DNA of 64,000 bases from assembly GCA_964603545.1 (NCBI GenBank), contig CAZRVD010000001.1, positions 68,358-132,357 of the forward strand. Reading direction: 5' to 3'. Below are positions 5,764 through 46,465 of this stretch, one piece after another (the stretch's first letter is position 1; each line of letters opens with the position of its first letter). The notes beneath the pieces are model-generated. The model did not search any database and was not told where the DNA came from. It saw only the letters and a list, made by a program, of their open reading frames with translations. The position numbers were made by a program, and so were the translations under genes. Source of the stretch: an uncultured Candidatus Saccharibacteria bacterium. GTDB lineage: Bacteria; Patescibacteriota; Minisyncoccia; Phycocordibacterales; DATDWN01.

Positions 5764-5899
5764 ATTAGTAATTAACGACGAAGATAAAATAAGCACGAAG
5801 CATTGTTTGAGCAAAGCGAGTTTGCGAGAGTGCTATGTATCAAGGAGATTAATTTCTTGATTGTTGAGTGCGAGCAAAATTGTACCAACAATTTATGCG
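5764..5899. repeat. intergenic repeat family 2, copy A (3' of dnaE)
   Basis: About 75% identical to 46327-46465. Shared blocks are AATTAnnAAnnAACGACGA, GAAGCAyTGTyTGAG, CGAGTTTGCGAGA, TTTCTTGATT, CGAGCAAA and the end TTTATGCG. Confidence 0.6.
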
Positions 5900-5923
5900 T
5901 GCTCTAAAAATATTCCAAATTTA

Positions 5924-8900
5924 TTACTCCATCAGCTTTACTTTGTCGATCAATATTGACTTCTCTCCATTTCTTAAAGAAAAAGTCCCTTTTATAACGA
6001 TGCAACTTTCAGGGATTAAAATGTCTTGAAATTCTTCAAAAATTTTAGGGAAAGCAACAACATCTATACTATCTGTTAGATCTGCAAGTTTTAGGAAAAT
6101 CATTTTGTCTCCCTTTTTTGTCATTACACTTCGGATTTCTTCTACAATACCCCCCACAACAACCGGAGCTCTTTCTGTGGCAGTTTCTTTTAATTTTTTG
6201 ATATTAGTTTCTCTTCCTTCCAACTTATGTTTAAAAGAATCCAGTGGGTGTCCAGAAATATAAAGTCCGAGAAGTTCCTTTTCCCATAAAAGTTTTTCAG
6301 CTGAGTCACCTGGCGGAGATAGATCAAGTTCAATTTCTGAAGCTTTAGTCGGAGTGGACATCAAAGAGAAAAGTGAATCTTGGTCAGATTCCTTGCTTCG
6401 CTCTTCTTTGTTGAAAGTAAGAAGTTTATCTAGATTAAAAAGTAATGTGCTTCGATCACTGCCTTTTGGTGTTATGGATTCAAGTGCTCCTGTTTTAATA
6501 AGAGCTTCCATAGATTTTTTATTTAAATTTTTATCTTTTATTCTACGAAGGAAATCAGAAAGGGTAGTAAAAGGCCCATTTGCTTTTCTTTCTGTAATTA
6601 TTGATGTTGCGATTCCTTCACCAAAGTTTTTAATTGTTGTTAGTCCAAAACGGATTGAGTCTTTTCCATTTGTCTTTATTACGGTGAAGCCTTCAAAAGA
6701 TTGATTTACATCTGGGGGAAGAACAAGAATTCCCATTCTTTTACACTCGCTAATTATTTCTGAAATCATGTCTGTGTCGCCCGATTCTGCTGTAAGGACG
6801 GCGGACATATATATTGCGGGGAAGTTGGCTTTCATATAAGCAGTTTGGTAAGCCACTTTTCCATAGCTTGCTGCGTGGGCTTTGTTGAAGCCATAACCCT
6901 GGAAAGGTTCAAACAAATTCCACAATTCTTCTGCTTTTTTCTCTGTCATCCCGCCATGCGTCTGACAGCCTTCAACGAATTTTACGTGTTGTTTTGCCAT
7001 TTCTTCGCGGATTTTTTTACCAACAGCCTTTCGGAATTTATCCACTTCACCCCAATTGTATCCAGCCACTTCAATAGCTGTGTAAAGAAGGTCATCTTGG
7101 TAAACTAGCACTCCAAAAGTTTTGTCCAAAAAATTTTTCATTTTTGGATGCAAATACGTCACGGGTTTTCTACCATGCTTTCTCTCAATGTATTCTTTTA
7201 TGTTATCCATCGGTCCTGGGCGGTACAGAGCTACCATAACATTTATGTCGTGAATTACAGTTGGCTTCAAATCCTTAAGAGATCGAGTCATCCCATCCCC
7301 GTTAAGTTGGAAAAGTCCAACGGTTTCTCCGCGGGCGAGCATTTCAAAAGTTTTTTTGTCATCCACTGGTACGTTTTCAATATCAATTTTTACTCCTTCC
7401 AGTTTTTCTGCTAGTTTTACGGCGTCTGCCAAAATAGAAAGGTTTCGTATTCCAAGAAAATCAAATTTAAGTAACCCCACGCCGTCTTCACCAACATCAT
7501 TCATGTCGTATTGAGTTATTATTTTATTGTCACCTTTTGTGTCGTATTGTAGTGGCACATAGTCAGTAAGTGGTGTAGGGGAGATCACCACACCAGCTGC
7601 GTGCACAGAGATGTGTCTTGCTCCACCCTCTATTTTTTTTGCCATATCTATTATTTTTCGGACATCAGTTTGTTCTGTGTACATAGTTTTGAGTTCCGGG
7701 TTTTCTTTCAGTGCTCTCTCAAGGGTCATTGGGAAACCTTGTGCGCCCATGGGGATTTGTTTGGCTATCGCATCTCCCAGACTATATGGAAAACCAAGTG
7801 CACGTGTTACATCTCGCACTGCACCGCGAGCCGCCATTGTTCCAAATGTTCCGATTTGAGCCACTTTGTCTATACCGTATTTCTGCCTTGCATAGTCAAT
7901 CATTTCATCACGTCTATCATCGGCAAAATCCATATCAATATCTGGTGCTGATGGTCTGTCTGGGTTTAGAAATCTTTCAAACGGTAGTTTGTATTCAATA
8001 GGGTTTACGTTTGTGATTCCAGAAAGAAAAGTAACGAGTGAACCAGCCACCGAGCCTCTAATTGTTGTTAGTATTCCATGTTTGTGAGCGTAGTCTAGCA
8101 GGTCATATACAACAAGAAAGTATGGTGCGTATCCTTTGTCCTTGATAACCTTAAGTTCGTATTCTATTCTTTCTAATAGTTCTGGAGTCTTTTCTAGTTT
8201 TCTTTTTGGGATACCTTCAAAAACTATTCTTCGAAACTCGTCATCGTGAGAGAGACCACTTTCTACGATAAAATTTGGTAAAAACCATTTTCCAATAGAA
8301 ATTTCTAGGTTACATCTGTTTGCAATTTTCTCGTTGTTTATTAGCGCCTCTGGTAAATCTTTGAAATATTTCTCTACGATTTTTTGATTTATAAAAGAAA
8401 AGTCGTCTGTTCCTTCTTCCACCTTTTCGTCACTTTGTGACTGAATAGCAAGTAGAGTTTCGCGAGCCACTCTATCTTCTTTGTTTATATAATAGACATC
8501 ATGATTTGCAACAATGGGGGTGTTTGTCTCTTTGGCAAAAGTTATCAACTTTTTCATATTTTCCTCGTGGCCTTTCATCTCTGGGTGGTGAGTGATTTCA
8601 ATATAAAAGTTCGGGACTTCAGTTGTCCCAGCGAATGTTTTTTTGTACCATTCTACTCTTTCTAGTGCCTGTTCCTTATTTCCTGTTTCAAGCGAGGATA
8701 AAATATCGTTTGAAAAAGATGGGGCAATTGCAATAAGTCCATCAGAGTATTTTTCCAAAAGTTCCCTGTCCACTCTCGGTTTGTAGTAGAAACCTTCAAG
8801 GTGCGCGAGTGTCACAAGTTGGATTAAATTTTTATAACCTTTTTCATTTTTCGCAAGAAGCACTAGTCTGTAGCGCTGTTTGTCTATACCGGTTTGTTTT

Positions 8901-9133
8901 TCATGGCGACTTCTGTAGGCAACGTATGCGTCAATTCCAATAATGGGTTTAATTTCTTTTTTCTTGCAAGCCTTGTAAAACTCAATAGCTCCGTAAAGGT
9001 TTGCGTTGTCTGTTAGAGCTAAAGCCGTCATGTCGTTTTTCTTAGCTTCCTCAATTAATGCGTCTATTTTAGGTAGGGCATTAAGTAGGGAGTAGTGGGA
9101 ATGCGTGTGGAGGTGGGTGAAACGGGGTGCCAT
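5924..9133 (-). CDS. dnaE: DNA polymerase III alpha subunit
   Basis: 1069 aa. PHP domain N-terminus (HLHTHSHYSLL), polymerase core and a C-terminal OB fold. Confidence 0.9.
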   Translation of the reverse strand: MAPRFTHLHTHSHYSLLNALPKIDALIEEAKKNDMTALALTDNANLYGAIEFYKACKKKEIKPIIGIDAYVAYRSRHEKQTGIDKQRYRLVLLAKNEKGYKNLIQLVTLAHLEGFYYKPRVDRELLEKYSDGLIAIAPSFSNDILSSLETGNKEQALERVEWYKKTFAGTTEVPNFYIEITHHPEMKGHEENMKKLITFAKETNTPIVANHDVYYINKEDRVARETLLAIQSQSDEKVEEGTDDFSFINQKIVEKYFKDLPEALINNEKIANRCNLEISIGKWFLPNFIVESGLSHDDEFRRIVFEGIPKRKLEKTPELLERIEYELKVIKDKGYAPYFLVVYDLLDYAHKHGILTTIRGSVAGSLVTFLSGITNVNPIEYKLPFERFLNPDRPSAPDIDMDFADDRRDEMIDYARQKYGIDKVAQIGTFGTMAARGAVRDVTRALGFPYSLGDAIAKQIPMGAQGFPMTLERALKENPELKTMYTEQTDVRKIIDMAKKIEGGARHISVHAAGVVISPTPLTDYVPLQYDTKGDNKIITQYDMNDVGEDGVGLLKFDFLGIRNLSILADAVKLAEKLEGVKIDIENVPVDDKKTFEMLARGETVGLFQLNGDGMTRSLKDLKPTVIHDINVMVALYRPGPMDNIKEYIERKHGRKPVTYLHPKMKNFLDKTFGVLVYQDDLLYTAIEVAGYNWGEVDKFRKAVGKKIREEMAKQHVKFVEGCQTHGGMTEKKAEELWNLFEPFQGYGFNKAHAASYGKVAYQTAYMKANFPAIYMSAVLTAESGDTDMISEIISECKRMGILVLPPDVNQSFEGFTVIKTNGKDSIRFGLTTIKNFGEGIATSIITERKANGPFTTLSDFLRRIKDKNLNKKSMEALIKTGALESITPKGSDRSTLLFNLDKLLTFNKEERSKESDQDSLFSLMSTPTKASEIELDLSPPGDSAEKLLWEKELLGLYISGHPLDSFKHKLEGRETNIKKLKETATERAPVVVGGIVEEIRSVMTKKGDKMIFLKLADLTDSIDVVAFPKIFEEFQDILIPESCIVIKGTFSLRNGEKSILIDKVKLME

Positions 9134-9196
9134 ATGAAAGGATTATAGCACGAGGTTTTTATAGTAGTTCTATTGAAAAATTGCTAGAGTTATTGC

Positions 9197-9793: not shown

Positions 9794-9839
9794 TTTTTCT
9801 GAATGGATAGTGTAAAGTATTCCCACTATGGTAGTACGA

Positions 9840-10055: not shown

Positions 10056-10080
10056 AAACCTCCGAAACGGAGGTTTTTAT
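10054..10080 (+). terminator. rho-independent terminator after rpmF
   Basis: AAAACCTCCG-AAAC-GGAGGTTTTTAT. Confidence 0.7.
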
Positions 10081-10136
10081 CTTAATTAAAATTTGTAAAT
10101 TTTTATAATTGTTCTATACTGTAATCAAACAGTAGT

Positions 10137-11839: not shown

Positions 11840-11846
11840 GTGGCTT

Positions 11847-11957
11847 TCAAATTTGGCGAACTTCTCGTTCCCAAATTAAAAATACTCATCACCTTACTAC
11901 TTGTAAGGCTCTTCGTCTTTTTAATTTCTCTCGTCGGATTTCACTCAAATTTGAAAG
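11847..11957 (+). repeat. intergenic long-hairpin repeat family 1, copy 1 (after rnc)
   Basis: Terminal CAAATTTG/CAAATTTG, an AU-rich inverted flank (AAAATTAAAAATA / TTTTTAATTT) and apical CCTTAC-TACTT-GTAAGG. Homologous to the copies at 18157, 36238, 39505 and 51402. Confidence 0.7.
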
Positions 11958-12023: not shown

Positions 12024-12042
12024 CGTGGTGAAAGGAGGGCTT

Positions 12043-14802: not shown

Positions 14803-14827
14803 AGATATGACTTTTTATATACGATGA

Positions 14828-14856
14828 AGGGCGGTCGCGTATTGCACGCGCCGCCC
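14828..14856. terminator. GC-rich hairpin between convergent smc and cassette C
   Basis: GGGCGGTCGCGT-attgc-ACGCGCCGCCC. Confidence 0.45.
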
Positions 14857-14873
14857 AACAAGTCCATGAGGCG

Positions 14874-15089
14874 TCACACCTTCATATAGTGCCGAAGTGG
14901 TACCGTCGGCAATGTTCCGTCGGCATTCCGACGGGGGAGCTGGTCAGGGTGCTCACCCAGGACAACCAGTTCCTGATTGGGGTCCACGTTGATGACGTAG
15001 ACTTCTCTTGGCATCATTGCGAGCCCTCTCTGTATGACTTGTTTCACCTTGTCTCCAGGGCTGACGGTCTGTCCTGTCGCTGTTCCCAT
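14874..15089 (-). CDS. hypothetical 71-aa protein, high-GC cassette C
   Basis: ATG at 15089 preceded by AGAGGAGG. GC-rich. No recognisable family (weak AbrB/MazE-like flavour). Confidence 0.4.
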   Translation of the reverse strand: MGTATGQTVSPGDKVKQVIQRGLAMMPREVYVINVDPNQELVVLGEHPDQLPRRNADGTLPTVPLRHYMKV

Positions 15090-15110
15090 CGAACACCTCC
15101 TCTGACCCAG

Positions 15111-15144: not shown

Positions 15145-15227
15145 AGAAGGGAATAGTTGGGGATAATGAATTTTACTAAACTCATCGAGACTATATTTTT
15201 ATGGCGCATCACGGAGTTCGTGAAGAT

Positions 15228-15300
15228 ACGAGTGCGAGGAAAATTTCGAGCACGAAATTATTCCAACGACAGAAAAATATAGTTGAGTAAGAGTTTAGTA
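15228..15300. repeat. repeat family 2, partial/permuted copy (3' of rnr)
   Basis: GAGTGCGAGGAAAATT matches the 3' block of family 2. It is followed by CCAACGACAGAAAAATA..TTGAG.AAGAGTTT, which matches the 5' block. Confidence 0.4.
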
Positions 15301-15317
15301 ATCCGATAAATAAAAAA

Positions 15318-17255
15318 TCAAGAAACAATAGAGTAGTCCAGTACTCTTTTTTCCATATCTGCAGAAACTACTTTGAATTTTACTTTGTCACCAAGAGTAA
15401 ATTTTTGTCCAGTCTTCTCACCTTTGATAGTGTAATTTTTTTCATCAAGTGTATAAAAGTCATCACCTAGATCGCGGATTTTTACCATCCCTTCACACTT
15501 TGTCTCAATTTCTTCAATGTAAATGCCCCATTCAACAACACCAGTTATAGCTCCTTCGAATATTTCTCCAATGTGCTCCGTCATGTATTCAACTTGTTTG
15601 TATTTGATACTTGCTCTTTCTGCTTCGGATGCTTTTTTCTCAAGTTCAGAAGATGCCAAACAAATTCTTTCAAATTTTGTGTATTCATCAATTTCTATTT
15701 TTCCACCTTTTAGTTCGCGTTCAAGGAATCTGTGCACCAATACATCAGGGTATCTTCTGATCGGTGAAGTAAAGTGTGTGTAGTATGCAAATGCAAGAGA
15801 GAAGTGGCCAATATTTTTTGTAGAGTATGTTGCTTTAGCCATACTGCGTATAACTGCGGTGTTTATAAGGTCTTCGTTTGGAGTACCTTTCACATCCTTT
15901 AATAGTTCGTTTAAATCTCTTGAAGTCACCGAACCTTCTTTATTTTTGAGTTCAAAGCCCATAGCTTTTAAAAATACAGCTAGGTCTTGGATTCTGTCTT
16001 TATCTGGTTTTGGATGGATTCTGTATACAGATTGTTTCCCTTTCAATAAGCCCTGGTTTTGAGACATAAAAATATGTTTCGCTACCGCACGGTTGGCCAG
16101 GAGCATAAACTCTTCAACTAGTTTGTGTGTATCTAGTCTAGACTTTTTATAAACTTTTATTGGTTTACCTTTCTCATCTAGAACAAACTTTACTTCCTCT
16201 GTTTCAAAAACCATCGCACCGTTTTGTGATTTTTTCTTTTCTAATTTTTTTGCGATTTCGTTTAGTTTACGAAGCTCGACTTGGTGTGGACCGTCTTGAT
16301 TTCCAAGTATGACTTCGTTTGCGTCTTCGTATGTAAATCTTTTATTGCTATGTATGATTGTTCGGCCAAACCACTCTTCTAGGACCTCTCCACTACCAGT
16401 CATTTTAAAAATTGCAGAGAAAGTGAATTTGTCTTCGTTTGGGTTCAGAGAACAGAGGTCGTTTGAAAGTACTTCTGGAAGCATTGGTATCGTTCTGTCT
16501 ACCAGGTAAACTGATAAGCCTCTTTTTTCTGACTCTCGGTCCAAATCTGATCCAGGAGTAACAAAGTGAGACACATCTGCAATATGCACACCGATCTCAT
16601 ATTTATCGTCACCTAAGTCTTGGAATGAAATAGCGTCATCAAAGTCTTTGGCGTCAAAAGGATCTATGGTCATTGTTGTTACTCCGCGCATGTCGCGTCT
16701 GTTTTTTACTTCTTGATCGAAATTGTTTTTATATTCACTTTTTATTTTATCTGCTTCGGCTTCTACAGAGTGGGGGAATTCAATCCGAAAACCTTTTTCT
16801 AAAACGATGGACTCCATTTCTGTATTGTTTTCACCCTTTTGACCGATAACTTTCATAACTTCTCCTGTTAGTGTGTCCCAGTCAACAATTTTTACCAACA
16901 CTTTCTCTCCCACATTTACATCTGCGTCGTTGGAAAGGGAAATGTCTACATAGAGACGCTGATCATCTGGCATAACAAATTTTTTTCCATCTCTCTCTAT
17001 TATTACCCCCACAAACTCTTCTTTTGCTCTCTTTATTACTTTAACAACCCTACCTTGCTCTCGATTTTTTATCTTCTCACCAGTCAGCTCTATTTCTACT
17101 GTGTCTCCGTGTAGGGCACGATTAACGTCCTTTGGCTGTATCTCAATATTATTTTCTCTGTTCTTTTCTTCTGGATTTGGATCGAAAAAACCAACACCCT
17201 TCGTGTTTATGCTAATAGGTCCAACAAGCGAGTTTTTTTTCATAAGTAGCACCAT
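15318..17255 (-). CDS. rnr: ribonuclease R (RNB family 3'-5' exoribonuclease)
   Basis: RNB catalytic motif HFSLAFAYYTHFTSPIRRYPDVLVHR. Cold-shock/OB domain at the N-terminus and S1 at the C-terminus. 645 aa. Confidence 0.85.
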   Translation of the reverse strand: MVLLMKKNSLVGPISINTKGVGFFDPNPEEKNRENNIEIQPKDVNRALHGDTVEIELTGEKIKNREQGRVVKVIKRAKEEFVGVIIERDGKKFVMPDDQRLYVDISLSNDADVNVGEKVLVKIVDWDTLTGEVMKVIGQKGENNTEMESIVLEKGFRIEFPHSVEAEADKIKSEYKNNFDQEVKNRRDMRGVTTMTIDPFDAKDFDDAISFQDLGDDKYEIGVHIADVSHFVTPGSDLDRESEKRGLSVYLVDRTIPMLPEVLSNDLCSLNPNEDKFTFSAIFKMTGSGEVLEEWFGRTIIHSNKRFTYEDANEVILGNQDGPHQVELRKLNEIAKKLEKKKSQNGAMVFETEEVKFVLDEKGKPIKVYKKSRLDTHKLVEEFMLLANRAVAKHIFMSQNQGLLKGKQSVYRIHPKPDKDRIQDLAVFLKAMGFELKNKEGSVTSRDLNELLKDVKGTPNEDLINTAVIRSMAKATYSTKNIGHFSLAFAYYTHFTSPIRRYPDVLVHRFLERELKGGKIEIDEYTKFERICLASSELEKKASEAERASIKYKQVEYMTEHIGEIFEGAITGVVEWGIYIEEIETKCEGMVKIRDLGDDFYTLDEKNYTIKGEKTGQKFTLGDKVKFKVVSADMEKRVLDYSIVS

Positions 17256-18153: not shown

Positions 18154-18156
18154 CTT

Positions 18157-18269
18157 CCAAATCTGGCGAACTCCTAGTCTCAAATTTAAAAATATTCGGC
18201 ACCTTACTACCTGTAAGGCTTCTCACATTTTCAAATTCTCAACGTCGGATTTCATCCAGATTGTGAAAG
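18157..18269 (+). repeat. long-hairpin repeat family 1, copy 2 (after the KH gene)
   Basis: 5' CCAAATCTGG, 3' CCAGATTGTG (compensatory to the 5' end), apical CCTTAC-TACCT-GTAAGG. Confidence 0.7.
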
Positions 18270-28587: not shown

Positions 28588-28623
28588 TTACAACCGTGCG
28601 AAGCCCAGAGTGGTCGCATGACC
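28588..28623 (+). promoter_or_regulatory. 33-nt conserved leader motif (family 3) overlapping the start codon of 28618
   Basis: AACCGTGCGAAGCCCAGAGTGGTCGCATGACCA. The ATG of the downstream gene sits in the TGGTC-GCAT-GACCA mini-hairpin. Confidence 0.5.
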
Positions 28624-29025
28624 AAACTTATGTTAACAATTATTTTAAGTGCAGTTGCGATATTTGCTTTCGGAGCTTTTTGGTTTACTGTTTTGTTTGG
28701 ACAGACTTGGGCAAAACTTATGGACTTTAACCCTGCAGGGGACGATGTTGCTAGGCAAATGGGGATGGGTAAGCCCTTAGTTCAGAATTTTATATCAAAT
28801 CTTGTTATCGCAACAGTTTTTTACTACATGATTCCACAGTTATTGGTTTCTTCATATTTAAGTCTAGCAAAGGTCCTGTTTATAGTTTGGTTAGCCTTTA
28901 GTTTGCCTATTTTTGCCAATGCCGCTATTTGGGAGAGAAAAAGCTGGAAGCTAGTTTTGATTAACTCTGCTCAGAGTCTTATCTCTCTGGCTATAGTTTC
29001 AAGTATTGTCTACTATATGCAGTAG
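28618..29025 (+). CDS. 4-TM membrane protein (DUF1761-like)
   Basis: 135 aa, four hydrophobic helices. Confidence 0.4.
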   Translation: MTKLMLTIILSAVAIFAFGAFWFTVLFGQTWAKLMDFNPAGDDVARQMGMGKPLVQNFISNLVIATVFYYMIPQLLVSSYLSLAKVLFIVWLAFSLPIFANAAIWERKSWKLVLINSAQSLISLAIVSSIVYYMQ

Positions 29026-36232: not shown

Positions 36233-36237
36233 AAGTT

Positions 36238-36347
36238 TCCAAATTTGGCCAATTTCTTTGTCAGAGTTCAAAAAATAATTCTCACCGTACTAGTTGTACG
36301 ACTCGAATTATTTTTATCCTCTTTCGCGAAATTGTCTCAAATTTGAA
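36238..36347 (+). repeat. long-hairpin repeat family 1, copy 3 (after rpoC)
   Basis: Terminal CAAATTTGG / CAAATTTG. Apical helix is CGTAC-tagtt-GTACG (compensatory relative to CCTTAC/GTAAGG). Confidence 0.65.
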
Positions 36348-39490: not shown

Positions 39491-39504
39491 GCTCGGGTCT
39501 TTTT

Positions 39505-39595
39505 ACTCAATCTCATCTTCTAAAATTTGAAAATAATCATCACCTTACTACTTGTAAGGCTCTTCATATTTTAAAATTTTATAAGCGACCTTGAG
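39505..39595 (+). repeat. long-hairpin repeat family 1, copy 4 (after rpoD)
   Basis: Its own terminal helix GCTCgGGTC / GACCttGAGC. Shared core TCTAAAATTTGAAAATAATCATCACCTTACTACTTGTAAGGCTCTTCATATTTTAAAATTTTATAAGCGACC. Confidence 0.65.
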
Positions 39596-39742: not shown

Positions 39743-40408
39743 TTGAAAACACTCCGTATTGTCATGGCGATGACTCTGTTCTCTCTCACTTCCTTCGCTT
39801 CGGCGACGGCGCAGGACGGAGGATACAAGGTTTCGGCGATTTCTGTCGGTTCGGGGGAAACCCCGATCTCCGGCGGGATCTCCGCTTCAGTCGATCTGAC
39901 GACCGAAAGTGGCGGATTCATGCAGGTCATGGTTCAATCTGAGCAGGCTTGGTTCATGATTGGCAAGGACTGGAAGTTCTCTCGCTCCCGTTGCAGTTTC
40001 TACGGTTCAGTGGGGCATTTCCAGTCGGCGCCGTGGGTGGGTCCGTACGCGGGTTGTACCCTTGTTCTGGCCAACCTTGGTGGGCAGGAGGTTTCTATCA
40101 GTGCTCTGACTTGGCCCGGCTTTTACATCGGTTGGGAGCCGAAGAACTGGCGCACAGCCGAGGATGGGGTGGAGAATCCGGAGTCCTTGAAGGCTGGGTA
40201 TTTCTCGGTTGCCTCGCTCAATCTCGGGAGGGTTTCGGTGAGCATCGCTCATTTGAACTTTTTGGACGACAAGACCAACATCCTTCCGGGCGTCGCATAC
40301 ACCCAGAAGGTGCGTAGTGACATGGATGTCAGCGGGAGTTTCACTTGGAACTCCAACTCTGACTCCCCGATGTTCTTCGTTGGTGCATCATGGCATCCGA
40401 AGAAGTAG
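39743..40408 (+). CDS. secreted beta-rich protein (possible beta-barrel or adhesin-like), high-GC cassette G, TTG start
   Basis: Signal peptide KTLRIVMAMTLFSLTSFASATAQD, then alternating-hydrophobic beta-strand-like sequence. GC well above the backbone. Only TTG is in frame upstream, after GAAAGG. Confidence 0.45.
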   Translation: MKTLRIVMAMTLFSLTSFASATAQDGGYKVSAISVGSGETPISGGISASVDLTTESGGFMQVMVQSEQAWFMIGKDWKFSRSRCSFYGSVGHFQSAPWVGPYAGCTLVLANLGGQEVSISALTWPGFYIGWEPKNWRTAEDGVENPESLKAGYFSVASLNLGRVSVSIAHLNFLDDKTNILPGVAYTQKVRSDMDVSGSFTWNSNSDSPMFFVGASWHPKK

Positions 40409-40427
40409 AGCGACTAGCTTCGTGTAC

Positions 40428-40470
40428 GGCAGGACACCCGAGTGGGGGTCCTGCCGGCGCGGAGTTTTTT
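40428..40470 (+). terminator. rho-independent terminator of cassette G
   Basis: GGCAGGAC-acccgagtgggg-GTCCTGCC ggcgcggagTTTTTT. Confidence 0.6.
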
Positions 40471-40549
40471 GATACCTGAAATTATCCACAAGGGGTTTAA
40501 AAAATCTTCATGTTAGTATTGATACGGAAAGTCTGAGAGGGGAGGTGAC

Positions 40550-40753
40550 ATGGAGAAGTGTCCGGATTGTGAGGGTCCTGTCGGTGTGCTCATGAACTAT
40601 TATATTTGTAGGGGTCAGTGTGACGGCAAACTTTTGTTGCACACTGATCCAGATGAAAACAGGAAGGAGATGAGAAGGAGAGGGGCTCTTCTTCAAGTTA
40701 GCCACACGGATGAGGACGTAGTACACTTCGTCAGTCGAACACCCAAAGTCTAG
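40550..40753 (+). CDS. small zinc-ribbon-like protein, high-GC cassette H
   Basis: CPDCEG...CRGQC (CxxC-N16-CxxxC). RBS GGGGAGGTGA. 67 aa. Confidence 0.4.
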   Translation: MEKCPDCEGPVGVLMNYYICRGQCDGKLLLHTDPDENRKEMRRRGALLQVSHTDEDVVHFVSRTPKV

Positions 40754-40798
40754 TCTTGTCATGGTGGAGTCGTTTTGTGACTCCACCCGCAAGGCCTG

Positions 40799-40831
40799 CC
40801 CCGTAGTAGAGATACTCTACCGGGGTTTTTT
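40799..40831 (+). terminator. terminator of cassette H
   Basis: CCCCGTAGTAGAG-atac-TCTACCGGGG TTTTTTCG. Preceded by a second hairpin GGTGGAGTC-gttttgt-GACTCCACC at 40763-40787. Confidence 0.55.
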
Positions 40832-40853
40832 CGTATTAAAAAGTATATGAGAA

Positions 40854-40877
40854 GGCCCCGGGGTTGATTCCGGGGCC
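40854..40877 (-). terminator. terminator of the minus-strand coiled-coil gene
   Basis: GGCCCCGG-ggttgatt-CCGGGGCC, followed on the minus strand by TTCTCATATACTTTTTAAT. Confidence 0.5.
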
Positions 40878-40905
40878 TGGTATTCGATGTCGCAACTTGC
40901 GCTTC

Positions 40906-41542
40906 CTACTTCTTCTTCGTCAGGAGCGCACGAAGCGCGTCAGCTTTGCTCTTGCGCGCGGCCATCAGGACCGCGCGCTGTTCGGTTCCGGAGGGTCGAG
41001 GCGTGGCGACCACCACGGCGGGGTTTGCGACCTTCGCCTTGTTCGCGACTTCTCGCTGAACCCGACGTACCTGGTCGCGCTTCTTCTGCTCGACTTCGGC
41101 CTCGTCGACTGCGTTCGCCAGTGCGTTGTAGGCGTTGATGCGAAGTTCGAATGTGCCGTTCAGTTCTGCGCTGACTGCGCTGACGAGCTCAGCCTGGAGC
41201 TTCTGGAGGCGTTCGATGAGGTCCTTGTCGTAGCCCTCCTCGTCGCGCAGGCGGTTGATGATCTTGGTGAAGCGTGCCGTCTGCACCTGGTTGCCCTCGA
41301 GTGGCTTGTCGGTGACCGAGTAGCGCAGGAAGGCTCGGAGCTTGCCGTGTTCCGGTCGACACGATATCGGCCCCGATGACGATCGCCTTCTCGTTCTCGC
41401 CTTCCTCGATGGCGTCCGCCATCGCCAGGATGTAGCTGTCGATGGGGTTGCCGATCTGGAAATCGCGCGTCTTGCTCATCGCGCCCATGATTTCCGCGAC
41501 CGCTTCCTGAGACTGTTCGAAGGTCATTGTCGTCTTGGCCAT
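40906..41542 (-). pseudogene. GC-rich alpha-helical/coiled-coil protein gene interrupted by a frameshift near 41330-41360 (cassette I)
   Basis: ORF 41189..41542 is protein-like for about 62 aa (MAKTTMTFEQSQEAVAEIMGAMSKTRDFQIG...AIVIGADIVS) and then becomes P/R/G-rich junk. The +1 frame continues protein-like (EHGKLRAFLRYSVTDKPLEGNQVQTARFTKIINRL...) into ORF 40906..41286. The plus-strand ORF 40864..41379 is an antisense artefact. Confidence 0.5.
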
Positions 41543-41609
41543 ATCGGACTCCGTTCTATGAAGGTACTGCTTTTCTGAGGGCGAAATGCCGTTCAGATCT
41601 AACTAGACG

Positions 41610-41638: not shown

Positions 41639-41677
41639 ATAGATTAAACATACACTAAAAAATGCTATTCTATAACC

Positions 41678-44611
41678 ATGTCTGACACTATTTTGAACAA
41701 AAAATTTCAGGAAAAATATAAAGCCTTGAACAAGGCGCAGAAGGAGGCAGTGGATGCAATTGATGGCCCTGTCATGGTTGTGGCGGGGCCTGGAACAGGT
41801 AAGACAACTATTTTAACTTTACGTATTGCAAATATCCTAAAGGAAACAGACACTCCGCCTTCGGGCATTTTGGCCCTTACTTTTACTGATGCCGGAGCAA
41901 AAGTAATGAGACTTAAATTACGTGAGATTATTGGAAGTTCTGCTGACCTAGTTCGCATTCACACTTTTCATGGATTTGCCTCAAGCGTGATAGCAGAGTT
42001 TCCAGATCACTTTCCTCACCTTTCTCGTTCTACACAAATCACAGAAATAGAAGCTGAGGCGATTGTTAGAGAAATATTAAAAGATAAAAAATTTTCCAAA
42101 TTGAGACCCTTTGGAGATAAGGATTATTATATTGGTAAAATTTTGGGAGCTATTCGTGACTGTAAAAAAGAAGCTTGGACTCCAGACGTAGTAAAAAGTT
42201 TTGCCAAAGAAGAAATAGAAAGAGTTAAGACCAACGAAGATTCCATATCTACACGGGGTAGTTCAAAAGGAGAACTTAAAGCTGATGCACTTAAGAGGAT
42301 AGAGAAGTGTGAGAGAACGATTTTATTTTCTGATGTTTATAGTGAATATGAAATAAAAAAAAGAGAAGAAAGAAAAATGGATTTTGATGACCTTCTTTTT
42401 GAGCTACTTTTAGCACTACAAAAAGACGAGTTATTACTGCGACTGTTGCAAGAAAAGTTTTTATATATTTTAGTTGACGAACATCAAGACACAAACGACT
42501 CACAAAATTTAATAGTGACACTTCTTGCCAACTTCTTTGAAAACCCAAATGTTTTTGTTGTAGGGGATGAAAAGCAAGCCATCTACCGTTTCCAAGGAGC
42601 GTCAGTTGAAAATTTCTTGAAATTCCAAAACATTTGGAAAAGTATGAAAGTCATAACTCTTAAAAGTAATTATCGTTCCCATCAGAGCATTCTTGACGCC
42701 ACATTCTCTATGATAGAGAACAATTATGCAGACGGAGAGCATTTAGGTTTAAGAACGATTTTAAAATCTGAATCAAAAACAAAACAAAAACCTATAGAAG
42801 TTGTGTCGGCTGGCAATAGTCAGTCTGCCGACAATTATCTAGTGAAAAAATTAAAAGAAATCCACAAAAACGCTTTCGAGAGCACGGTTGCGGTTATTGT
42901 TCGCAAAAACAGAGAAGTGGAACATATTTTAAATATTTGCGAAGCAGGGGGTGTGCCAGTTTCTGCTGAACGCGGAACAGATGTTTTCTCTCACCCAGTA
43001 GGGATTTTATATTTTAACCTACTGGAGTATTTGGACGACCCAACAAAAGTAGAGTGCCTGGCGGAGACACTGGCAGTGGGACTTTGGAAAGTAAGTTTTA
43101 CAAAAGGCAAAGATTTAATTTCTAAACTGCGCAGTAGCAACATAGAAATAGAAAAAGAAATTCCAGCACTAAATAAACTTCAACAAGAAATAACAAATTC
43201 TGGAGTTATTTCTTTTCTAATTCTTGTTGGAGATTTGTCAGGGTTTACAGAACTAACAACAAAGAATCCACTTTCGGCAGAAGTTTGGAGAAGTATTATT
43301 GATCTTTCTCGGGATATAGCTGAGAGACAAAAAATTTCTGACCCAAAGGTTTTAATCAAAGAACTTCTAGCCTACAGAAAGACAGCAGAAACTAAGAGTA
43401 TAAAAATCGGGGGTGGGAAACTGGATGCCAATATTCACATAATGACAGCGCATGGTTCAAAGGGTTTGGAGTATGACCTTGTGTTCCTACCTTTTGCCAC
43501 AGAGGAGTCTTGGATGAGACACACTTTTGGCTCATCTTTTGTGTTACCTCGTGAGAAAGACGAGAAAGACGAGATTCGTGATGCTAGGAGACTTTTTTAT
43601 GTGGCTATGACCAGAGCGAGAGAGCATGTGGAGATTGTAGTGCCACTAGAGGATAATCTGGGTAAGATTTTTACACCACTACGGTTTATTTCTGAGATGG
43701 ATAAAAATCATGTGAAGTATATAGATACACCAGCGGTTCACGAACTACCAAAATCTTTCAAACTCTCCGATATAGAGTCACAGAGAAGGAGTGATATGAT
43801 AGAGCATACCAAAAGAACTATTGTAGAGAAGGGCCTGTCTGTCACGGCACTAAATCACTATATGGTTTGTCCTAGACAATTTTTTTACAAAAGTATTTTG
43901 AAAATCCCAGAAGCACCGAGTGTATCTTCTGAAAAAGGTATCGCAATGCACAAAGCACTTGCTTATGTGTGGAAAGAGGAAGATAGAAGTGTAAAAAACA
44001 TTTCACGAGTTATTGAGGACACAGTGAAAGATTATTTTCACGTCTCACTACTTCCTAGTTTTGAAAAAGAAATAATAGTAGAAGAACTTCTGGAGAGCGC
44101 CCCAAAAGTCGCTACAGCTCTCCATGGATATTTCCAAAGTGAGGGAAAAGTTTTTACAGAGATTTGGGAAGAACGTGCTTTTGATACAACTTTTGGTAAA
44201 AAGCAAATCTCTTTTAATTTACACGGACAACTTGATGCGGTTATTGACCTTGCAGACAAAGTAGGGGTTTTTGATTATAAAACTCGCGAAGCTTTGAGCG
44301 TAAACGCTATAAAAGGGGAGACCAAGGATTCCGACGGAAATTATTTTAGACAACTGGTGTTTTATAAGATTTTACTCGGAACAAATTCAAAGTATAAAGG
44401 TAAGCAAATAGAACCTGCGCTTATTTTTGTAAAACCAGATAGCAAGGGAAGATGTCCAACTATTGTTTTGCCAATAGAAAAAGAAGATGAGGCGAAAGTA
44501 ATGTCGGAAGTAGAAGCCCTTGTACAAAGCGTTTGGTCCGAAAAGTTTCTAGAAGCAGATTGTGAAGACAAAGACTGCAAATACTGTAAAATGTTCAAAC
44601 TAATAGTTTAG
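41678..44611 (+). CDS. UvrD/PcrA-family helicase fused to a C-terminal PD-(D/E)XK nuclease with a 4-Cys cluster (AddA/AddB-Cas4-like)
   Basis: Walker A VVAGPGTGKTT, DExx ILVDEHQDTN, helicase motif VI VAMTRAREHV. C-terminal nuclease-like domain ending with CEDKDCKYC. Confidence 0.75.
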   Translation: MSDTILNKKFQEKYKALNKAQKEAVDAIDGPVMVVAGPGTGKTTILTLRIANILKETDTPPSGILALTFTDAGAKVMRLKLREIIGSSADLVRIHTFHGFASSVIAEFPDHFPHLSRSTQITEIEAEAIVREILKDKKFSKLRPFGDKDYYIGKILGAIRDCKKEAWTPDVVKSFAKEEIERVKTNEDSISTRGSSKGELKADALKRIEKCERTILFSDVYSEYEIKKREERKMDFDDLLFELLLALQKDELLLRLLQEKFLYILVDEHQDTNDSQNLIVTLLANFFENPNVFVVGDEKQAIYRFQGASVENFLKFQNIWKSMKVITLKSNYRSHQSILDATFSMIENNYADGEHLGLRTILKSESKTKQKPIEVVSAGNSQSADNYLVKKLKEIHKNAFESTVAVIVRKNREVEHILNICEAGGVPVSAERGTDVFSHPVGILYFNLLEYLDDPTKVECLAETLAVGLWKVSFTKGKDLISKLRSSNIEIEKEIPALNKLQQEITNSGVISFLILVGDLSGFTELTTKNPLSAEVWRSIIDLSRDIAERQKISDPKVLIKELLAYRKTAETKSIKIGGGKLDANIHIMTAHGSKGLEYDLVFLPFATEESWMRHTFGSSFVLPREKDEKDEIRDARRLFYVAMTRAREHVEIVVPLEDNLGKIFTPLRFISEMDKNHVKYIDTPAVHELPKSFKLSDIESQRRSDMIEHTKRTIVEKGLSVTALNHYMVCPRQFFYKSILKIPEAPSVSSEKGIAMHKALAYVWKEEDRSVKNISRVIEDTVKDYFHVSLLPSFEKEIIVEELLESAPKVATALHGYFQSEGKVFTEIWEERAFDTTFGKKQISFNLHGQLDAVIDLADKVGVFDYKTREALSVNAIKGETKDSDGNYFRQLVFYKILLGTNSKYKGKQIEPALIFVKPDSKGRCPTIVLPIEKEDEAKVMSEVEALVQSVWSEKFLEADCEDKDCKYCKMFKLIV

Positions 44612-44612
44612 G

Positions 44613-45314
44613 TTATTCGAAGAGAAGAGCATCTATGACACGCTTTAGGTTTTCGTAAGGTTGTGCGCCTTGAACAACTGTTTTTGTTCCATCTCTTGAA
44701 ACAATTATAGAGTTTGGTGTGCCTCTTCCTCCGGCCTTAACAGCGTCTTGGTAGTCTACTTCTACTTTGGTTGCGTATTTACCACTAGATAGACATTCGT
44801 TGAATGCAGTTACATTAAGTCCGACATCTTTTGCGATTTTTGGAAGCTCTGCTGGATCTAGAGAGTCGTTTGAATTTGTTCTTGTGTAGATAGTGTTTAG
44901 GTATTCCCAGAATTTTGTAGGTCCACCAAGTTCGTTTGCACATTCTGTCGCTTCCGCTTCCTTACGAGCCTTTGGATGGAGTTGGTCTATAGGGAAGTGT
45001 CTGTAAACCCAAGCCACTTTTCCATTTTTGCCATACTCATCCATCATGCGTCTTAGCGTTGTGTGGAATTGTTTACAGTAAGGGCATTCTGTATCAGAGT
45101 ATTCAACTAGTATAAGTTTTGCATCTGGGTTTCCCAAAATATGATCCTGTGCTGTTATTGGTCTCATTTCTTCACCAGCAGTAGTTTCTGTCCCTGTTGT
45201 TTTGACTTTAGCTAACTCCTGTCCGTTTTTAAGGTTTGAATAATAAAATGCTCCAGCTATTAAGGCTCCTGCGATAACTATTGCTATCGGTACAGATAAT
45301 TTTTCTATATTCAT
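44613..45314 (-). CDS. DsbA-family thiol:disulfide oxidoreductase (membrane-anchored)
   Basis: N-terminal TM. Thioredoxin active site ECPYCKQF. Confidence 0.75.
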   Translation of the reverse strand: MNIEKLSVPIAIVIAGALIAGAFYYSNLKNGQELAKVKTTGTETTAGEEMRPITAQDHILGNPDAKLILVEYSDTECPYCKQFHTTLRRMMDEYGKNGKVAWVYRHFPIDQLHPKARKEAEATECANELGGPTKFWEYLNTIYTRTNSNDSLDPAELPKIAKDVGLNVTAFNECLSSGKYATKVEVDYQDAVKAGGRGTPNSIIVSRDGTKTVVQGAQPYENLKRVIDALLFE

Positions 45315-45384
45315 ATGTGACCATTCTACTAGGGAATAAATTTATATGCAATTGGACTTTTTTAGAATCGTGTTATTATGATAA

Positions 45385-45519
45385 CGGATGCATGTGCATC
45401 TCCGGGAAAGGAGGGTATCGCATGAGGTAGTCGCCATTCTCCTGGGGGAGTATACTTTCGCACTGGGAAGAGGAGGGGTTCTATGACACCACCCTCCTCA
45501 ACCCGGTTTTTCTTTTATT
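45385..45519 (+). ncRNA. candidate ~135-nt GC-rich small RNA with its own promoter and intrinsic terminator
   Basis: TTGGAC(45352-57)-N16-TATTAT(45374-79) promoter. Terminator GAGGAGGG-gttctatgacacca-CCCTCCTC aacccggTTTTTCTTTTATTT at 45468-45519. No ORF longer than 10 codons with an RBS inside. Not matched to a known RNA family. Confidence 0.35.
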
Positions 45520-45570
45520 TGAAAACTAGTATAATTAAAAAGGATCGAGGGCGGTCCAGAAAGGAGTGTA

Positions 45571-45612
45571 ATGGCTATGAAGGCAAAGAAGGCTGCGAAG
45601 AAGACCGCCTAG
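45571..45612 (+). CDS. tiny Lys/Ala-rich ORF (13 aa, MAMKAKKAAKKTA) with strong SD and terminator
   Basis: TATAAT at 45529-34, AAAGGAG at 45559-65, ATG at 45571, TAG at 45610-12, then the hairpin terminator at 45650-45674. Confidence 0.25.
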   Translation: MAMKAKKAAKKTA

Positions 45613-45649
45613 AAGCGGTAGGTTGCGATCTTCGCGACTGCACTATCCA

Positions 45650-45674
45650 GGGGGCACCGTGTGCCCCCTTTTTT
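45650..45674. terminator. bidirectional hairpin terminator
   Basis: GGGGGCAC-cgt-GTGCCCCC TTTTTT. Confidence 0.6.
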
Positions 45675-45678
45675 ATAT

Positions 45679-46260
45679 CTAAAAAAGACTTTGAGTTTTT
45701 ATTTCAGGAACTGGCTCCCAATGTTTAGTTTCCAACTTTATTTCTTTTGTAAAAGGTCCTTCTTTGAACATCAGCTTCTTATTTTTCATAGCAAATTCAA
45801 AAACATCTTTGGTTATTTTTACATCGTCTAAACAATACTTGCGTATTTTTTCTATCTCTCCTGACCTCCACCAAGCTACGGCTTCTAGTCCGTTACCACT
45901 TTTACTTAATCCAAAAGTTCCTTGGGCTATTTGTTCTAGTTTCATTCTACGACCGTAGGCTTGGCGGATTTCTTTTAGTAGGTCTAGTGAAAGTGTTTGT
46001 GTAAGGTCACCGTGTCCAGCTTTTTTATAGTATTTATTTAATAGGGGAATATCAAAGTGGTCGCCGTTAAAAGTGACAAGCATTTCCGCTTTTTTAAAGT
46101 AAGGCCACATTTTTTCAAATTCTTCTTCTAAAAAACTTTCATACTTGCCGGTTTCGTAGTCAAAAAGCCCAACTAGAGAAATATCTAAATCTACTGGGTC
46201 ATTAGATCCCACATCTTGAAATATGTTTTTTGTTTCAATATCAAAAACTACTTTTCTCAT
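45679..46260 (-). CDS. RNase H-like 3'-5' exonuclease (DEDDy, PolB-exonuclease-domain-like)
   Basis: Exo I FDIET, Exo II FNGDHFDIPLL, Exo III YCLDDV. Confidence 0.65.
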   Translation of the reverse strand: MRKVVFDIETKNIFQDVGSNDPVDLDISLVGLFDYETGKYESFLEEEFEKMWPYFKKAEMLVTFNGDHFDIPLLNKYYKKAGHGDLTQTLSLDLLKEIRQAYGRRMKLEQIAQGTFGLSKSGNGLEAVAWWRSGEIEKIRKYCLDDVKITKDVFEFAMKNKKLMFKEGPFTKEIKLETKHWEPVPEIKTQSLF

Positions 46261-46326
46261 AAAATTCAGTATAACAGGTATTCCACGTTCGTAAAATATT
46301 AATTAATTTTAAGACATTGCGCAGGA

Positions 46327-46465
46327 AATTAGAAAACAACGACGAGCGAAAAGAAGCCTGAAGCACTGTCTGAGGGTAATCCCGAGTTTGCGAGAAGGCT
46401 CTGGAGTGAGGAAGATTGTTTTCTTGATTTCCGAGCAAAGCAAAATCAAAGCTTTGATTTATGCG
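46327..46465. repeat. intergenic repeat family 2, copy B (3' of hisS)
   Basis: Aligns with 5764-5899 across ~135 bp (AACGACGAG...CGAGTTTGCGAGAAGGCT...TTTTCTTGATTTCCGAGCAAAG...TTTATGCG). Confidence 0.6.

Follow-up and report, generated by a model that had tools for sequence, protein, structure and literature searches.

In this 64 kb stretch of DNA (hereafter the window), related sequences recur in the short spacers beyond minus-strand genes, which raises the question of whether they are regulatory parts of those genes or members of something more general. The initial annotation had aligned 5764-5899 with 46327-46465, added a permuted partial third copy, and proposed a 3'-UTR, terminator or antisense-encoded element of ~135 bp. 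The two segments are indeed homologous, with 80% mean column identity over 203 columns including flanks and an nhmmer E-value of ~1e-54 each, and they represent a distinct intergenic repeat family that is unrelated by sequence to the one previously numbered family 1. The proposed extent was too small, as near-perfect inverted repeats enclose each of the two conserved cores. Searching the whole 64 kb with covariance model R1, filters off, identified exactly three copies, all on the plus strand (c1, c2 and c3). As had been noticed, each is located just past the stop codon of a minus-strand gene: a dnaE-like ORF (5924-9133) adjoins c1, hisS (46476-47756) adjoins c2, and an rnr-like ORF (15318-17255) adjoins c3.

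Copies in the window

Copy c1, of the long type, spans 5727..5925 on the plus strand as stalk plus core (R1 165.6 bits at 5741-5911), belongs to the GAGAC-UCACGG subfamily and folds at -57.3 kcal/mol (z -6.8). Its stalk is a 24-nt, 96% complementary inverted repeat in which 5727..5750 pairs with 5902..5925, and the last 2 nt of the 3' arm lie inside the stop codon of the dnaE-like ORF (5924-5926, minus strand). The conserved core (5751..5901), which is supported by RNAalifold on c1 and c2, by family-wide pair counts and by covarying apical helices, comprises P2 (5762-5775/5849-5863), an apical domain (5776-5848) with AACGACGA, P3 and GAAGCA..UGAG-hairpin-CGAGUUUGCGAGA, and the P4 hairpin (5874-5898), which has an ACCA loop and a bulged A. 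Outside the element, a canonical G+C-rich terminator with a T-run (5686..5716, plus strand) lies 11-20 nt upstream of the c1 stalk, and many copies elsewhere also have a canonical terminator just upstream.

Copy c2, also of the long type, spans 46294..46488 on the plus strand (R1 168.8 bits at 46305-46477), belongs to the ACAUUGCGCAG subfamily and folds at -62.8 kcal/mol (z -6.2). Its 22-nt, 95% complementary stalk is formed by 46294..46315 and 46467..46488. The 3' arm covers the hisS stop codon and final four codons, so that stalk arms reach into the last codons or stop codon of both dnaE and hisS. The conserved core (46316..46466) has the junction ACAUUGCGCAG and a second junction, CGAGCAAAG, and contains P2 (46324-46339/46417-46432), which carries an invariant U.G wobble, an apical domain (46340-46416) and the P4 hairpin (46440-46464). 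Directly after the stalk, in the minus-strand direction, is a promoter-like site of an RNase H-like gene (TTTACG-16-TG-TATACT, 46268..46295, minus strand), identified as a consensus match only, whose TATACT box is kept at the loci L027, L023 and L026.

The third copy, c3, is a true member of the family (44.6 bits, E-value of 1e-8 over the window), although it is not permuted: it is a "mini" variant at 15173..15301 (plus strand) that lacks the P2 arm and aligns collinearly to positions 1-169 of model R1. The AACGAC that had been matched initially is the 3' arm of the c3 stalk. The copy folds at -42.8 kcal/mol (z -5.1) into an outer helix (15173-15183/15291-15301), an internal loop (AUCGA, 15184-15188; UGAGUAA, 15284-15290), P1 (15190-15206/15267-15283), a short hairpin that replaces P2 (15210-15223) and the P4 hairpin (15238-15264) with an AGCA loop and a bulged A. 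Homologous mini copies were found in L026, L030, L049, L114 and L128.

Covariation and strand specificity of the fold

The whole element measures 200-300 nt and comprises nine helices. A variable outer helix is followed by P0 (AAAWYUC / GARWUUU), inside which lies a conserved, purine-rich internal loop (GUCGA / GAGAAA). P1, of ~18 bp and variable in sequence, leads to a three-way junction, past which extend a rod of P2-P2b-P3-P3a-P3b with GA-rich internal loops and the side hairpin P4. The stalk is AT-rich, 25-40 bp long and encloses >150 nt (an asymmetric core of 150-250 nt). Across genera, conservation of the loop sequences is 90% or more, and the bulges are conserved as well, while optional peripheral domains are inserted at points that differ between copies.

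Comparing c1 with c2 in RNAalifold revealed compensatory changes at 20 of 58 pairs. Among 61 distinct copies, 95.9% of cells were paired; shuffles gave 78.5% and slid partners 40-51%. Double-sided changes were present in 31 of 40 pairs. Almost all of the column pairs with the highest APC-corrected mutual information are predicted pairs, and the apical helices P3 and P3a covary too. G.U and U.G combinations outnumbered A.C and C.A (117 versus 23), the P2 U.G wobble was kept in 59 of 60 copies, and the plus strand was the more stable one in 83 of 88 copies (median -9.5 kcal/mol). The element has a conserved secondary structure with compensatory changes and strand asymmetry, the generic hallmarks of a structured non-coding RNA.

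Folding had initially been recommended for the minus strand, the sense of the adjacent genes, but the strand that folds is the plus strand. As this strand is antisense to the three neighbouring genes, the element is not simply their 3' UTR. What stands of the first proposal is a structured element at a terminator or 3'-end position; its identity as a plain 3' UTR or terminator does not, since the folded strand is antisense to the neighbours and the core is oversized for a terminator. A conserved multi-helix core of 150-170 nt is far beyond what termination requires.

In copy pairs with 93-97% identical cores, the P1 arms are just 57% identical. Where P1 base pairs differ in those copies, 25 of 27 have changed on both sides with pairing retained, and alignments between copies stop exactly at the core edges. 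Because the core is far better conserved than the stalk in the same two copies, purifying selection or gene conversion would act on every copy, and a host-useful RNA therefore fits better than a decaying selfish insert. The near-identical cores need not indicate recent transposition.

Distribution, turnover and genomic neighbourhood

Approximately 90 further copies were found in related Paceibacteria MAGs and metagenomes. Related GTDB loci (1.33 Mb) contained 16 copies, in closer relatives only, and 76 metagenome loci contained 74; the density is ~1 copy per 15-20 kb, or ~1% of the examined sequence. The viral contigs searched had no copies. Querying the window and 12 related loci with Rfam 15 returned only tRNA at the gathering threshold and matched the element to no family, and with E-values up to 10 the element regions gave chance-level snoRNA and sRNA matches far under threshold. 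The family is confined to a clade of Paceibacteria (ultra-small Patescibacteria/CPR bacteria), and this previously undescribed, multi-copy repeat probably represents a new class of structured RNA or mobile element. Two early doubts, that there might be neither further copies nor conserved structure and that the similarity might stem from recent local duplication, are dispelled by these relatives and their covarying fold. Since the long copies c1 and c2 are 20% apart, fall into separate subfamilies and are joined by ~90 relatives from other genomes, neither chance nor local duplication explains them.

Orthologous sites gain and lose copies or exchange one for another. The spacer between hisS and the RNase H gene contains a long-type copy in the window, L027, L024, L114 and L172, whereas L023 has an oppositely oriented copy there and L026 a mini copy. 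In L021 (hisS 80% identical), L029, L031-L035 and L025 the spacer is empty and only 15-50 nt long; the closest relative has no copy there. Between a small gene and a tRNA gene, L148 has an empty spacer, L135 a long-type copy and L110 another variant, and the subfamily at the dnaE 3' end differs between the window and L112/L164. Paralogues on one contig are 89-95% identical (L028, L174, L148). Contig Ga0172379_10000242 contains four exact pattern matches, all in one orientation, as are the three copies in the window.

All copies are intergenic, and their usual site is against a stop codon. For ~79 copies with assignable neighbours, the settings were co-directional sense (23), convergent (21), co-directional antisense (18) and divergent (6), showing that divergent (promoter) spacers are depleted (6/68). 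The stop codon of the convergent gene is usually 15-19 nt from the model edge. The tie to minus-strand housekeeping genes is incidental, as copies are found in either orientation and no spacer type lacks them, and the hisS spacer of the closest relative is empty. At the base of the stalk, a 5' A-run and a 3' T-run are each ~3-fold enriched, as in bidirectional terminators, with the T-run present in 43% of copies versus a background of ~13%. A consensus terminator scan did not call the stalks as intrinsic terminators, and the AT-rich stalk and loop of >150 nt do not fit an intrinsic terminator with its G+C-rich stem, loop of 3-8 nt and U-tract. Upstream of the copies, we found no enrichment of -10-like motifs and no dedicated promoter.

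Signs of mobility were sought at the element ends and among neighbouring genes. No stalk-abutting direct repeat >2 nt was found at 75 copies, nor any excess over shifted controls, with boundaries taken from MFE folds and thus approximate. Among the 348 ORFs within 1.5 kb of copies, we found neither a transposase nor a reverse transcriptase, nor any other gene that recurs as a neighbour, and no Y1 (HUH) transposase, IscB, TnpB or HNH ORF lay beside any copy. As the divergent P1 arms imply, conserved terminal inverted repeats are absent, and no flanking target tetranucleotide is conserved. Orientation relative to local GC skew was 41:30 (p 0.24). An unpaired CGTC-containing motif is located 5' of the main stem.

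Explanations and comparison with known systems

The reading that we favour, tentatively and as something short of probable, is a dispersed, duplicative, non-autonomous structured-RNA element at the terminator position, whose stalk ends or processes transcripts and whose core binds a factor. The element would be transcribed within neighbouring transcripts, where the long stalk, with a 5' A-tract and a 3' U-tract at its base, may close into a transcript-end or RNase III processing hairpin; acting in this way, it would make the module tolerated, or useful, precisely at gene ends. The conserved core would be a structured plus-strand RNA and bind a partner acting in trans, which may be a host protein or the machinery that copies the element to new sites. 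Complementarity of the stalk arms may be upheld by selection and/or palindrome (template-switch) correction, so that the arms could diverge fast, stay paired and creep into adjacent coding sequence. Against such an element stand the lack of -10-like enrichment upstream and the many copies just past a canonical terminator, and against the stalk as a terminator its AT-richness and the >150 nt it encloses, unlike known intrinsic terminators. No linked transposase or reverse transcriptase, target duplication or viral-contig copy was found that would point to a means of spread, and the stronger conservation of the core, which better suits a host-useful RNA, also counts against this reading. It is possible, if on the unlikely side, that the core is a new Paceibacteria-specific class of large, complex-folded RNA, comprising either dozens of stalk-flanked ribozyme or RNP genes or a new kind of non-autonomous, SINE-like bacterial element that lacks terminal repeats, makes no target duplications and spreads via an RNA or single-stranded intermediate, with the stalk built or extended from inverted copies of the flanks.

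The main rival, unlikely but serious, holds that each locus is a gene of a stand-alone trans-acting non-coding RNA family (RNP scaffold, protein-sequestering RNA or ribozyme), with the stalk as processing stalk and terminator, as in rRNA precursors, and the core as the functional molecule. A conserved interior with variable ends is the reverse of a TIR transposon, and the 94% core versus 57% stalk identity in the same copies suggests selection on each. Conserved loops and bulges, the strand-specific fold with its invariant U.G wobble, peripheral domains at varied places, as in large ribozymes and RNPs, and the frequent T-run after the stalk also agree with a gene. However, an upstream promoter signal was not found, the density is very high for an RNA gene, and orthologous spacers that are empty in close relatives or have swapped subfamilies and orientations are unusual for essential RNA genes. 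Nor is there a variable single-stranded segment to give the copies separate specificities.

We consider it doubtful that the family is a single-stranded-DNA hairpin element in the style of REP/REPIN or IS200/IS605-derived PATEs, whose plus strand, in the lagging-strand template, would fold as DNA and serve as substrate for cutting and pasting by an HUH (Y1) transposase or similar enzyme encoded in trans. The strand-specific structure and tolerated G.T, the absence of terminal inverted repeats and target-site duplications, the position at gene ends, the shared orientations on single contigs and the CGTC motif, as in CGTC-tagged REPs (PMC3733652), fit this mechanism. Conversely, orientation shows no significant bias relative to local GC skew, neither a conserved tetranucleotide nor an adjacent Y1 transposase was found, and no known DNA transposition hairpin comes near the complexity of this nine-helix, multi-junction fold with its conserved GA-rich loops. 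In REPs, a stem of 5-13 bp carries a loop of 2-20 nt.

A classical MITE, a deleted insertion sequence moved by a TIR-binding transposase, would likewise be small, non-coding, multi-copy, intergenic, hairpin-forming and variably present among relatives. This is very improbable and largely refuted, as the terminal arms differ where interiors are 94-98% identical, the ends have no abutting direct repeat, neighbouring ORFs include no related transposase, and short-range internal helices covary in a strand-specific way. A cis element specific to dnaE, hisS and rnr, serving them as 3' UTR, attenuator or antisense regulator and suggested by the three window copies abutting their stop codons and by recurrence at dnaE and hisS 3' ends in several relatives, has next to no credibility, being contradicted by empty spacers in the closest relative and many others, by dozens of unrelated genes flanked in every orientation and by a folded strand antisense to all three genes.

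The genomes of CPR/Patescibacteria are tiny, their spacers are very short, and descriptions of non-coding elements in them are few. The covariation signal is among the clearest obtainable from ~60 sequences, and Rfam has no entry for the element. Should the core be a functional RNA, it would be a new large non-coding RNA class in a major uncultured lineage; if the element is mobile, its conserved interior, copy-specific self-complementary ends and lack of target duplication would point to spread and maintenance unlike those of classical MITEs. Either way, it marks gene boundaries, should be masked or modelled in annotation of these genomes, and can serve as a concrete substrate in work on how CPR bacteria terminate transcripts and process them with RNase III.

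ERIC/IRU are enterobacterial 127-nt imperfect palindromes and BOX elements are pneumococcal boxA-boxB-boxC modules. Like these, the element is non-coding, multi-copy and intergenic, lies in either orientation in spacers (transcribed ones for ERIC and BOX), forms long RNA hairpins, is modular (as is BOX), varies in presence between relatives and has no known dedicated transposase. Unlike them, it has a far more elaborate, strongly covarying fold (nine helices, three-way junction, conserved GA-rich loops, invariant U.G), a conserved interior with copy-specific ends and a CPR host, and its sequence does not resemble theirs. Correia (NEMIS) and RUP MITEs, interspersed elements of ~100-160 nt, have paired ends that form RNase III-sensitive mRNA hairpins and can have promoter or terminator activity. 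They are set apart by 26-nt terminal inverted repeats that are conserved, duplication of a TA target and descent from IS630-type elements, none of which was found here.

A REP is a unit of 20-40 nt in which a tag (GTAG or CGTC) accompanies a 5-13 bp stem and a 2-20 nt loop, and REPINs consist of two inverted REPs (PMC3733652). The element shares with them extragenic palindromes at gene ends, compensatory stem changes, an unpaired CGTC motif 5' of the main stem (PMC3733652) and the lack of classical terminal inverted repeats or target-site duplications. It does not belong to them, as its "loop" is a structured, asymmetric core of 150-250 nt and its arms are not REP units; no RAYT was seen. Resembling bidirectional terminators and T7-type RNase III hairpins, it follows stop codons, has an A-tract, stem and U-tract at the stalk base, and is laid out with an asymmetric internal loop between a lower and an upper stem. 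It differs from both in its 25-40 bp AT-rich stem around a large conserved domain. 6S RNA (~180-200 nt) is built similarly to the element: a long stem closes it, an asymmetric loop at its centre bears a small hairpin on the 3' side, and the apical stem is long. The 6S covariance models gave no match to the element even at E-values up to 10, and whereas the element has three copies in 64 kb, a genome has one to a few 6S copies, whose presence at orthologous sites does not vary. Finally, HEARO and omega-RNA of IS200/IS605-type elements are also large, strongly covarying RNAs with many copies per genome, often without an adjacent ORF. The element has no Rfam HEARO match and no IscB, TnpB or HNH neighbours, and its flanks pair with each other, whereas in HEARO/omega-RNA one flank is the guide. 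In those systems a conserved interior is recognised by a trans protein, as we propose for the core of the element.

Copies in the window and host range

The window holds three copies of a structured intergenic element, two of a long type (c1, 5727-5925; c2, 46294-46488) and one short variant (c3). In an alignment of 5727-5925 with 46299-46483, 80% of 203 columns were identical, and a profile HMM built from c1 and c2 recovered both with E-values of ~1e-54 and no other match in the window. The homology proposed for these two regions in the initial annotation is therefore upheld, but at ~135 bp their size had been underestimated, as each conserved segment is enclosed by a near-perfect inverted repeat. 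This repeat is 24 nt long and 96% complementary in c1 (5727-5750 / 5902-5925), 22 nt long and 95% complementary in c2 (46294-46315 / 46467-46488), and its sequence differs between the two. ORFs inside the element were rejected as coding because they are not conserved between c1 and c2.

A covariance model of eight family members, run on the window with filters off, detected exactly three copies, all on the + strand: c2 (46305-46477, 168.8 bits), c1 (5741-5911, 165.6 bits) and c3 (15197-15276, 44.6 bits, E-value of 1e-8), the last spanning 15173-15301 with its outer helices. The third copy had been described as permuted; instead, it aligns collinearly to the model, with a 10-nt segment in place of the long arm of helix P2. 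All three were correctly placed just past minus-strand stop codons, and adjoin those of a dnaE-like ORF (c1), hisS (c2) and an rnr-like ORF (c3).

The window belongs to a metagenome contig of 115.7 kb, and the relatives of its hisS gene are found in Paceibacteria / Parcubacteria MAGs (Zambryskibacteria, Taylorbacteria and Minisyncoccia), the best with 80% identity. The covariance model identified 16 copies in 1.33 Mb around hisS from 80 species, in closer relatives only. A further 74 matches came from 76 metagenome loci that were picked with an exact pattern derived from the 5' junction and P2, including some copies that this pattern could not have selected. The proposed search for further copies thus returned relatives beyond the window, with 93 model matches in all, 89 of them distinct. 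Searches of Rfam with the window, the element regions and 12 related loci, at gathering and permissive thresholds, returned tRNA only. In viral contigs, a loose DNA pattern gave 18 matches that nhmmer judged to be noise, and two more specific patterns gave zero and one matches, the latter rejected by the covariance model. In the literature, we found no description of a CPR repeat or RNA of this kind. One related locus (L034) carries at least four family copies in 21 kb. Two of its members, of different subtypes, lie back to back in one 530-nt spacer (5353-5494 on the - strand and 5531-5711 on the + strand); the corresponding spacer of the related genome L035 measures just a few tens of bases.

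Fold and strand of the element

The element consists of a long stalk around a conserved core. From the outside inwards, a variable outer helix is followed by P0 (AAAWYUC / GARWUUU), a conserved asymmetric internal loop (5' (C)GUCGA, 3' GAGAAA(G)) and P1, with a sequence-variable outer part of 6-12 bp and an inner part of the form UUUU-NNNNN-AC ... GU-NNNNN-AAAA. The junction ACAUUGCRCAG then leads into the 3-bp helix P1a and into P2 (UUAGAAAACAA / UUGUUUUCUUGA), which continues as an apical rod of P2b, P3, a GAA/GAGA loop, P3a (GCA/UGC) and a variable hairpin flanked by UGAG and CGAG. A further junction, CGAGCAUAG, precedes P4, a side hairpin with a bulged A and the loop ACCA or AGCA. P0 and the internal loop are clearly displayed by c3, and c1 and c2 have one long stalk that reaches into the dnaE stop codon and the last hisS codons, respectively. 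Read by eye, the UGAG..CGAG and GUCGA/GAGAAA loops did not fit the canonical consensus of a hammerhead or k-turn.

In mini variants such as c3, a short hairpin substitutes for the whole P2 arm, and extra modules are present in some members, either in the apical domain or beside P4. An optional structured module, composed of GUGAGAAG, CUUCGCAAGACCUUGAGC and GAGAGGUGUAC, each followed by a hairpin, occurs in four related loci (L034, 5650-5770; L142, 403-656; L136, 1661-1854; L176, 1048-1226). Its insertion points differ, as it lies either within P2, on the 3' side, or between P4 and the CGAG junction, and it could represent a nested element in its own right or a peripheral domain of the RNA.

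Between c1 and c2 alone, 20 of the 58 predicted pairs are compensatory. Across 61 distinct sequences, standard pairs fill 95.9% of cells, compared to 78.5% in shuffles and 40-51% with slid partners, and 31 of 40 pairs have changed on both sides, in an alignment that was fitted to the covariance model and is thereby biased towards the structure. No shuffle attained any of the observed measures. As an energy-free check, the top APC-corrected mutual-information pairs were nearly all predicted pairs, and covariation of P3 and P3a also emerged from an independently made MAFFT alignment of the apical domain.

P2 carries a U.G wobble in 59 of 60 sequences, G.U and U.G together number 117 versus 23 for A.C and C.A, and 83 of 88 copies fold better on the + strand than on its complement (median difference -9.5 kcal/mol). 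By these strand data, the functional form is a single strand of + polarity. Folding had initially been envisaged on the minus strand, but the strand that folds is antisense to the adjacent window genes.

Genomic position, turnover and stalk evolution

Every copy is intergenic. Among the 68 copies with both neighbours assignable, counted in the element's own frame, co-directional sense (n = 23), convergent (n = 21) and co-directional antisense (n = 18) arrangements were common, and only six were divergent, so promoter-containing spacers are avoided. Genes that converge on the element typically have their stop codon 15-19 nt from the model edge, which is the stalk base; here the 5' side is enriched about threefold for an A-run, and the 3' side likewise for a T-run. 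Many copies have a canonical G+C-rich terminator 20-50 nt upstream, located at 5686-5707 for c1. No -10-like motif was enriched upstream on either strand, consensus scans for promoter- and terminator-type signals gave matches at shuffle level, and orientation had no significant relation to local GC skew. Clustering of the neighbouring genes yielded housekeeping genes and syntenic orthologues only, and did not reveal a transposase, a reverse transcriptase or any other recurrent partner.

Orthologous sites differ in occupancy. The spacer between hisS and an RNase H-like gene contains a long-type copy in the window and in L027/L171, L024, L114 and L172, a copy in the opposite orientation in L023 and a mini copy in L026. 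It is empty, at just 15-50 nt, in L021 (the closest relative), L029, L031-L035 and L025. Between a small gene and a tRNA gene, L148 has an empty spacer, L135/L124 a long-type copy and L110 another variant. At the dnaE 3' end, the window carries the c1 subfamily, and L112 and L164 a c2-type one. Sites are thus gained, lost or replaced, and this varying occupancy at three sites means that the element is no fixed cis-regulator tied to particular genes. At the nucleotide level, the filled and empty sites compared (L034/L035, L135/L148) are too diverged for base-exact insertion boundaries.

Where cores are 94-98% identical, the copies still differ in their stalk arms and are flanked by unrelated sequence. 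Alignments of near-identical copies break at or within the inner P1 arms, mostly exactly at the core edges. Copy pairs whose cores are 93-97% identical share just 57% identity in the inner P1 arms, and 25 of the 27 differing P1 base pairs changed on both sides with pairing kept. In the L028 pair, identity spans AATCTCG to GAGATT, and the flanks, although not homologous, retain complementarity (GCCC|GGGC and TTTAG|CTAAA). Stalk arms extend into dnaE (window, L112) and hisS (window, L114), where they take in the stop codon or the last codons, and no direct target duplication was found next to the stalk. Three non-exclusive explanations fit these data: strong purifying selection on a core whose stalk needs pairing only, gene conversion that swaps cores among resident stalks, and arm-to-arm template switching, which keeps the arms of a long palindrome complementary and allows outward creep of the repeat. 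The data do not fit a TIR transposon that decays neutrally after insertion.

A 14-nt sequence at 5130-5143 recurs twice, directly at 5913-5926 on the dnaE stop and in inverted form at 5727-5739 within the c1 stalk. As a target-site duplication around c1 and the adjacent G+C-rich island, the direct repeat was discarded, since we estimate it to be near chance level in AT-rich sequence. It lies at the probable start, an internal Met near 5136, of a thrS-like ORF (3885-5270, - strand), and could be a statistically weak trace of an ancestral dnaE-thrS junction. G+C-rich islands lie at 5200-5715, 14820-15110 and ~40400-41600 (46-55%, versus ~37% in the window). Both c1 and c3 have an island of their own directly on the 5' side, an association that may simply reflect permissive spacers. 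Their small ORFs had no Pfam match; the first island holds ORFs of 87 and 62 aa and its own terminator.

The window contains other repeats. Family 1, a distinct hairpin-containing repeat of ~90-100 nt with the core CACCUUACUACUUGUAAGG, has five copies in one orientation (11844-11942, 18154-18240, 36237-36289, 39495-39593 and 51401-51500). Four of them begin 4-5 nt past the stop codon of a + strand gene and therefore look like a second gene-end module family in this genome. A third short repeat, the GGTCATRCGACC hairpin (28591-28624, 49054-49125, 49560-49597), occurs in both orientations (a 91% complementary pair) and, at 49054-49125, in tandem. A G+C-rich, hairpin-rich stretch at 45380-45680, downstream of the RNase H-like gene, holds a tiny ORF (MAMKAKKAAKKTA) and a strong terminator (45649-45669). 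It had no Rfam match, its gene context is conserved in L027/L171, and it could be a small RNA or leader not described so far. Finally, the segment 60312-60334, made up of the last 10 nt of tRNA-Asn (60249-60321) and the 13 nt that follow, has an exact second copy 349 nt further along (60661-60683), the signature of putative attL/attR sites from a small element integrated at the tRNA gene.

Interpretation and known systems

Together, these results show a new, strongly structured, strand-specific and dispersed intergenic family, found here only in Paceibacteria, whose copies sit at the terminator position of spacers and come and go at orthologous sites. Our preferred reading, held tentatively, is a composite one. 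The element would be read as RNA inside neighbouring transcripts, its stalk would serve as a transcript-end or RNase III processing hairpin, and its conserved core would bind a trans factor, either the copying machinery or a host protein.

The main rival, which we consider unlikely, is a multigene family of stand-alone, complex-folded RNAs with a processing stalk. Conservation of the core copy by copy would suit such RNAs, but a density of about one copy per 15-20 kb, the absence of promoters from our searches and the turnover of sites argue against them. Quite improbable is a REP- or IS200-type element acting as single-stranded DNA: its fold would be too large and complex, and neither a Y1 transposase among the neighbours nor a replication bias was found, despite the agreement of strand specificity, the CGUC motif and the lack of terminal repeats and target duplications with such an origin. 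A classical MITE is largely contradicted and very improbable, and a gene-specific 3' UTR or antisense regulator, likewise largely contradicted, is hardly credible.

It is conceivable, if doubtful, that the family is categorically new, as a novel class of large ncRNA or ribozyme, or as a SINE-like element. The closest known systems are structured interspersed repeats (ERIC, BOX, REP/REPIN and Correia) and HEARO/omega RNA, the multi-copy structured RNAs of mobile elements, all of which have their lifestyle in common with this family. Unlike ERIC, BOX, REP/REPIN, Correia and HEARO, it combines a conserved interior and copy-specific self-complementary ends with a nine-helix covarying fold, optional peripheral domains and a CPR host.
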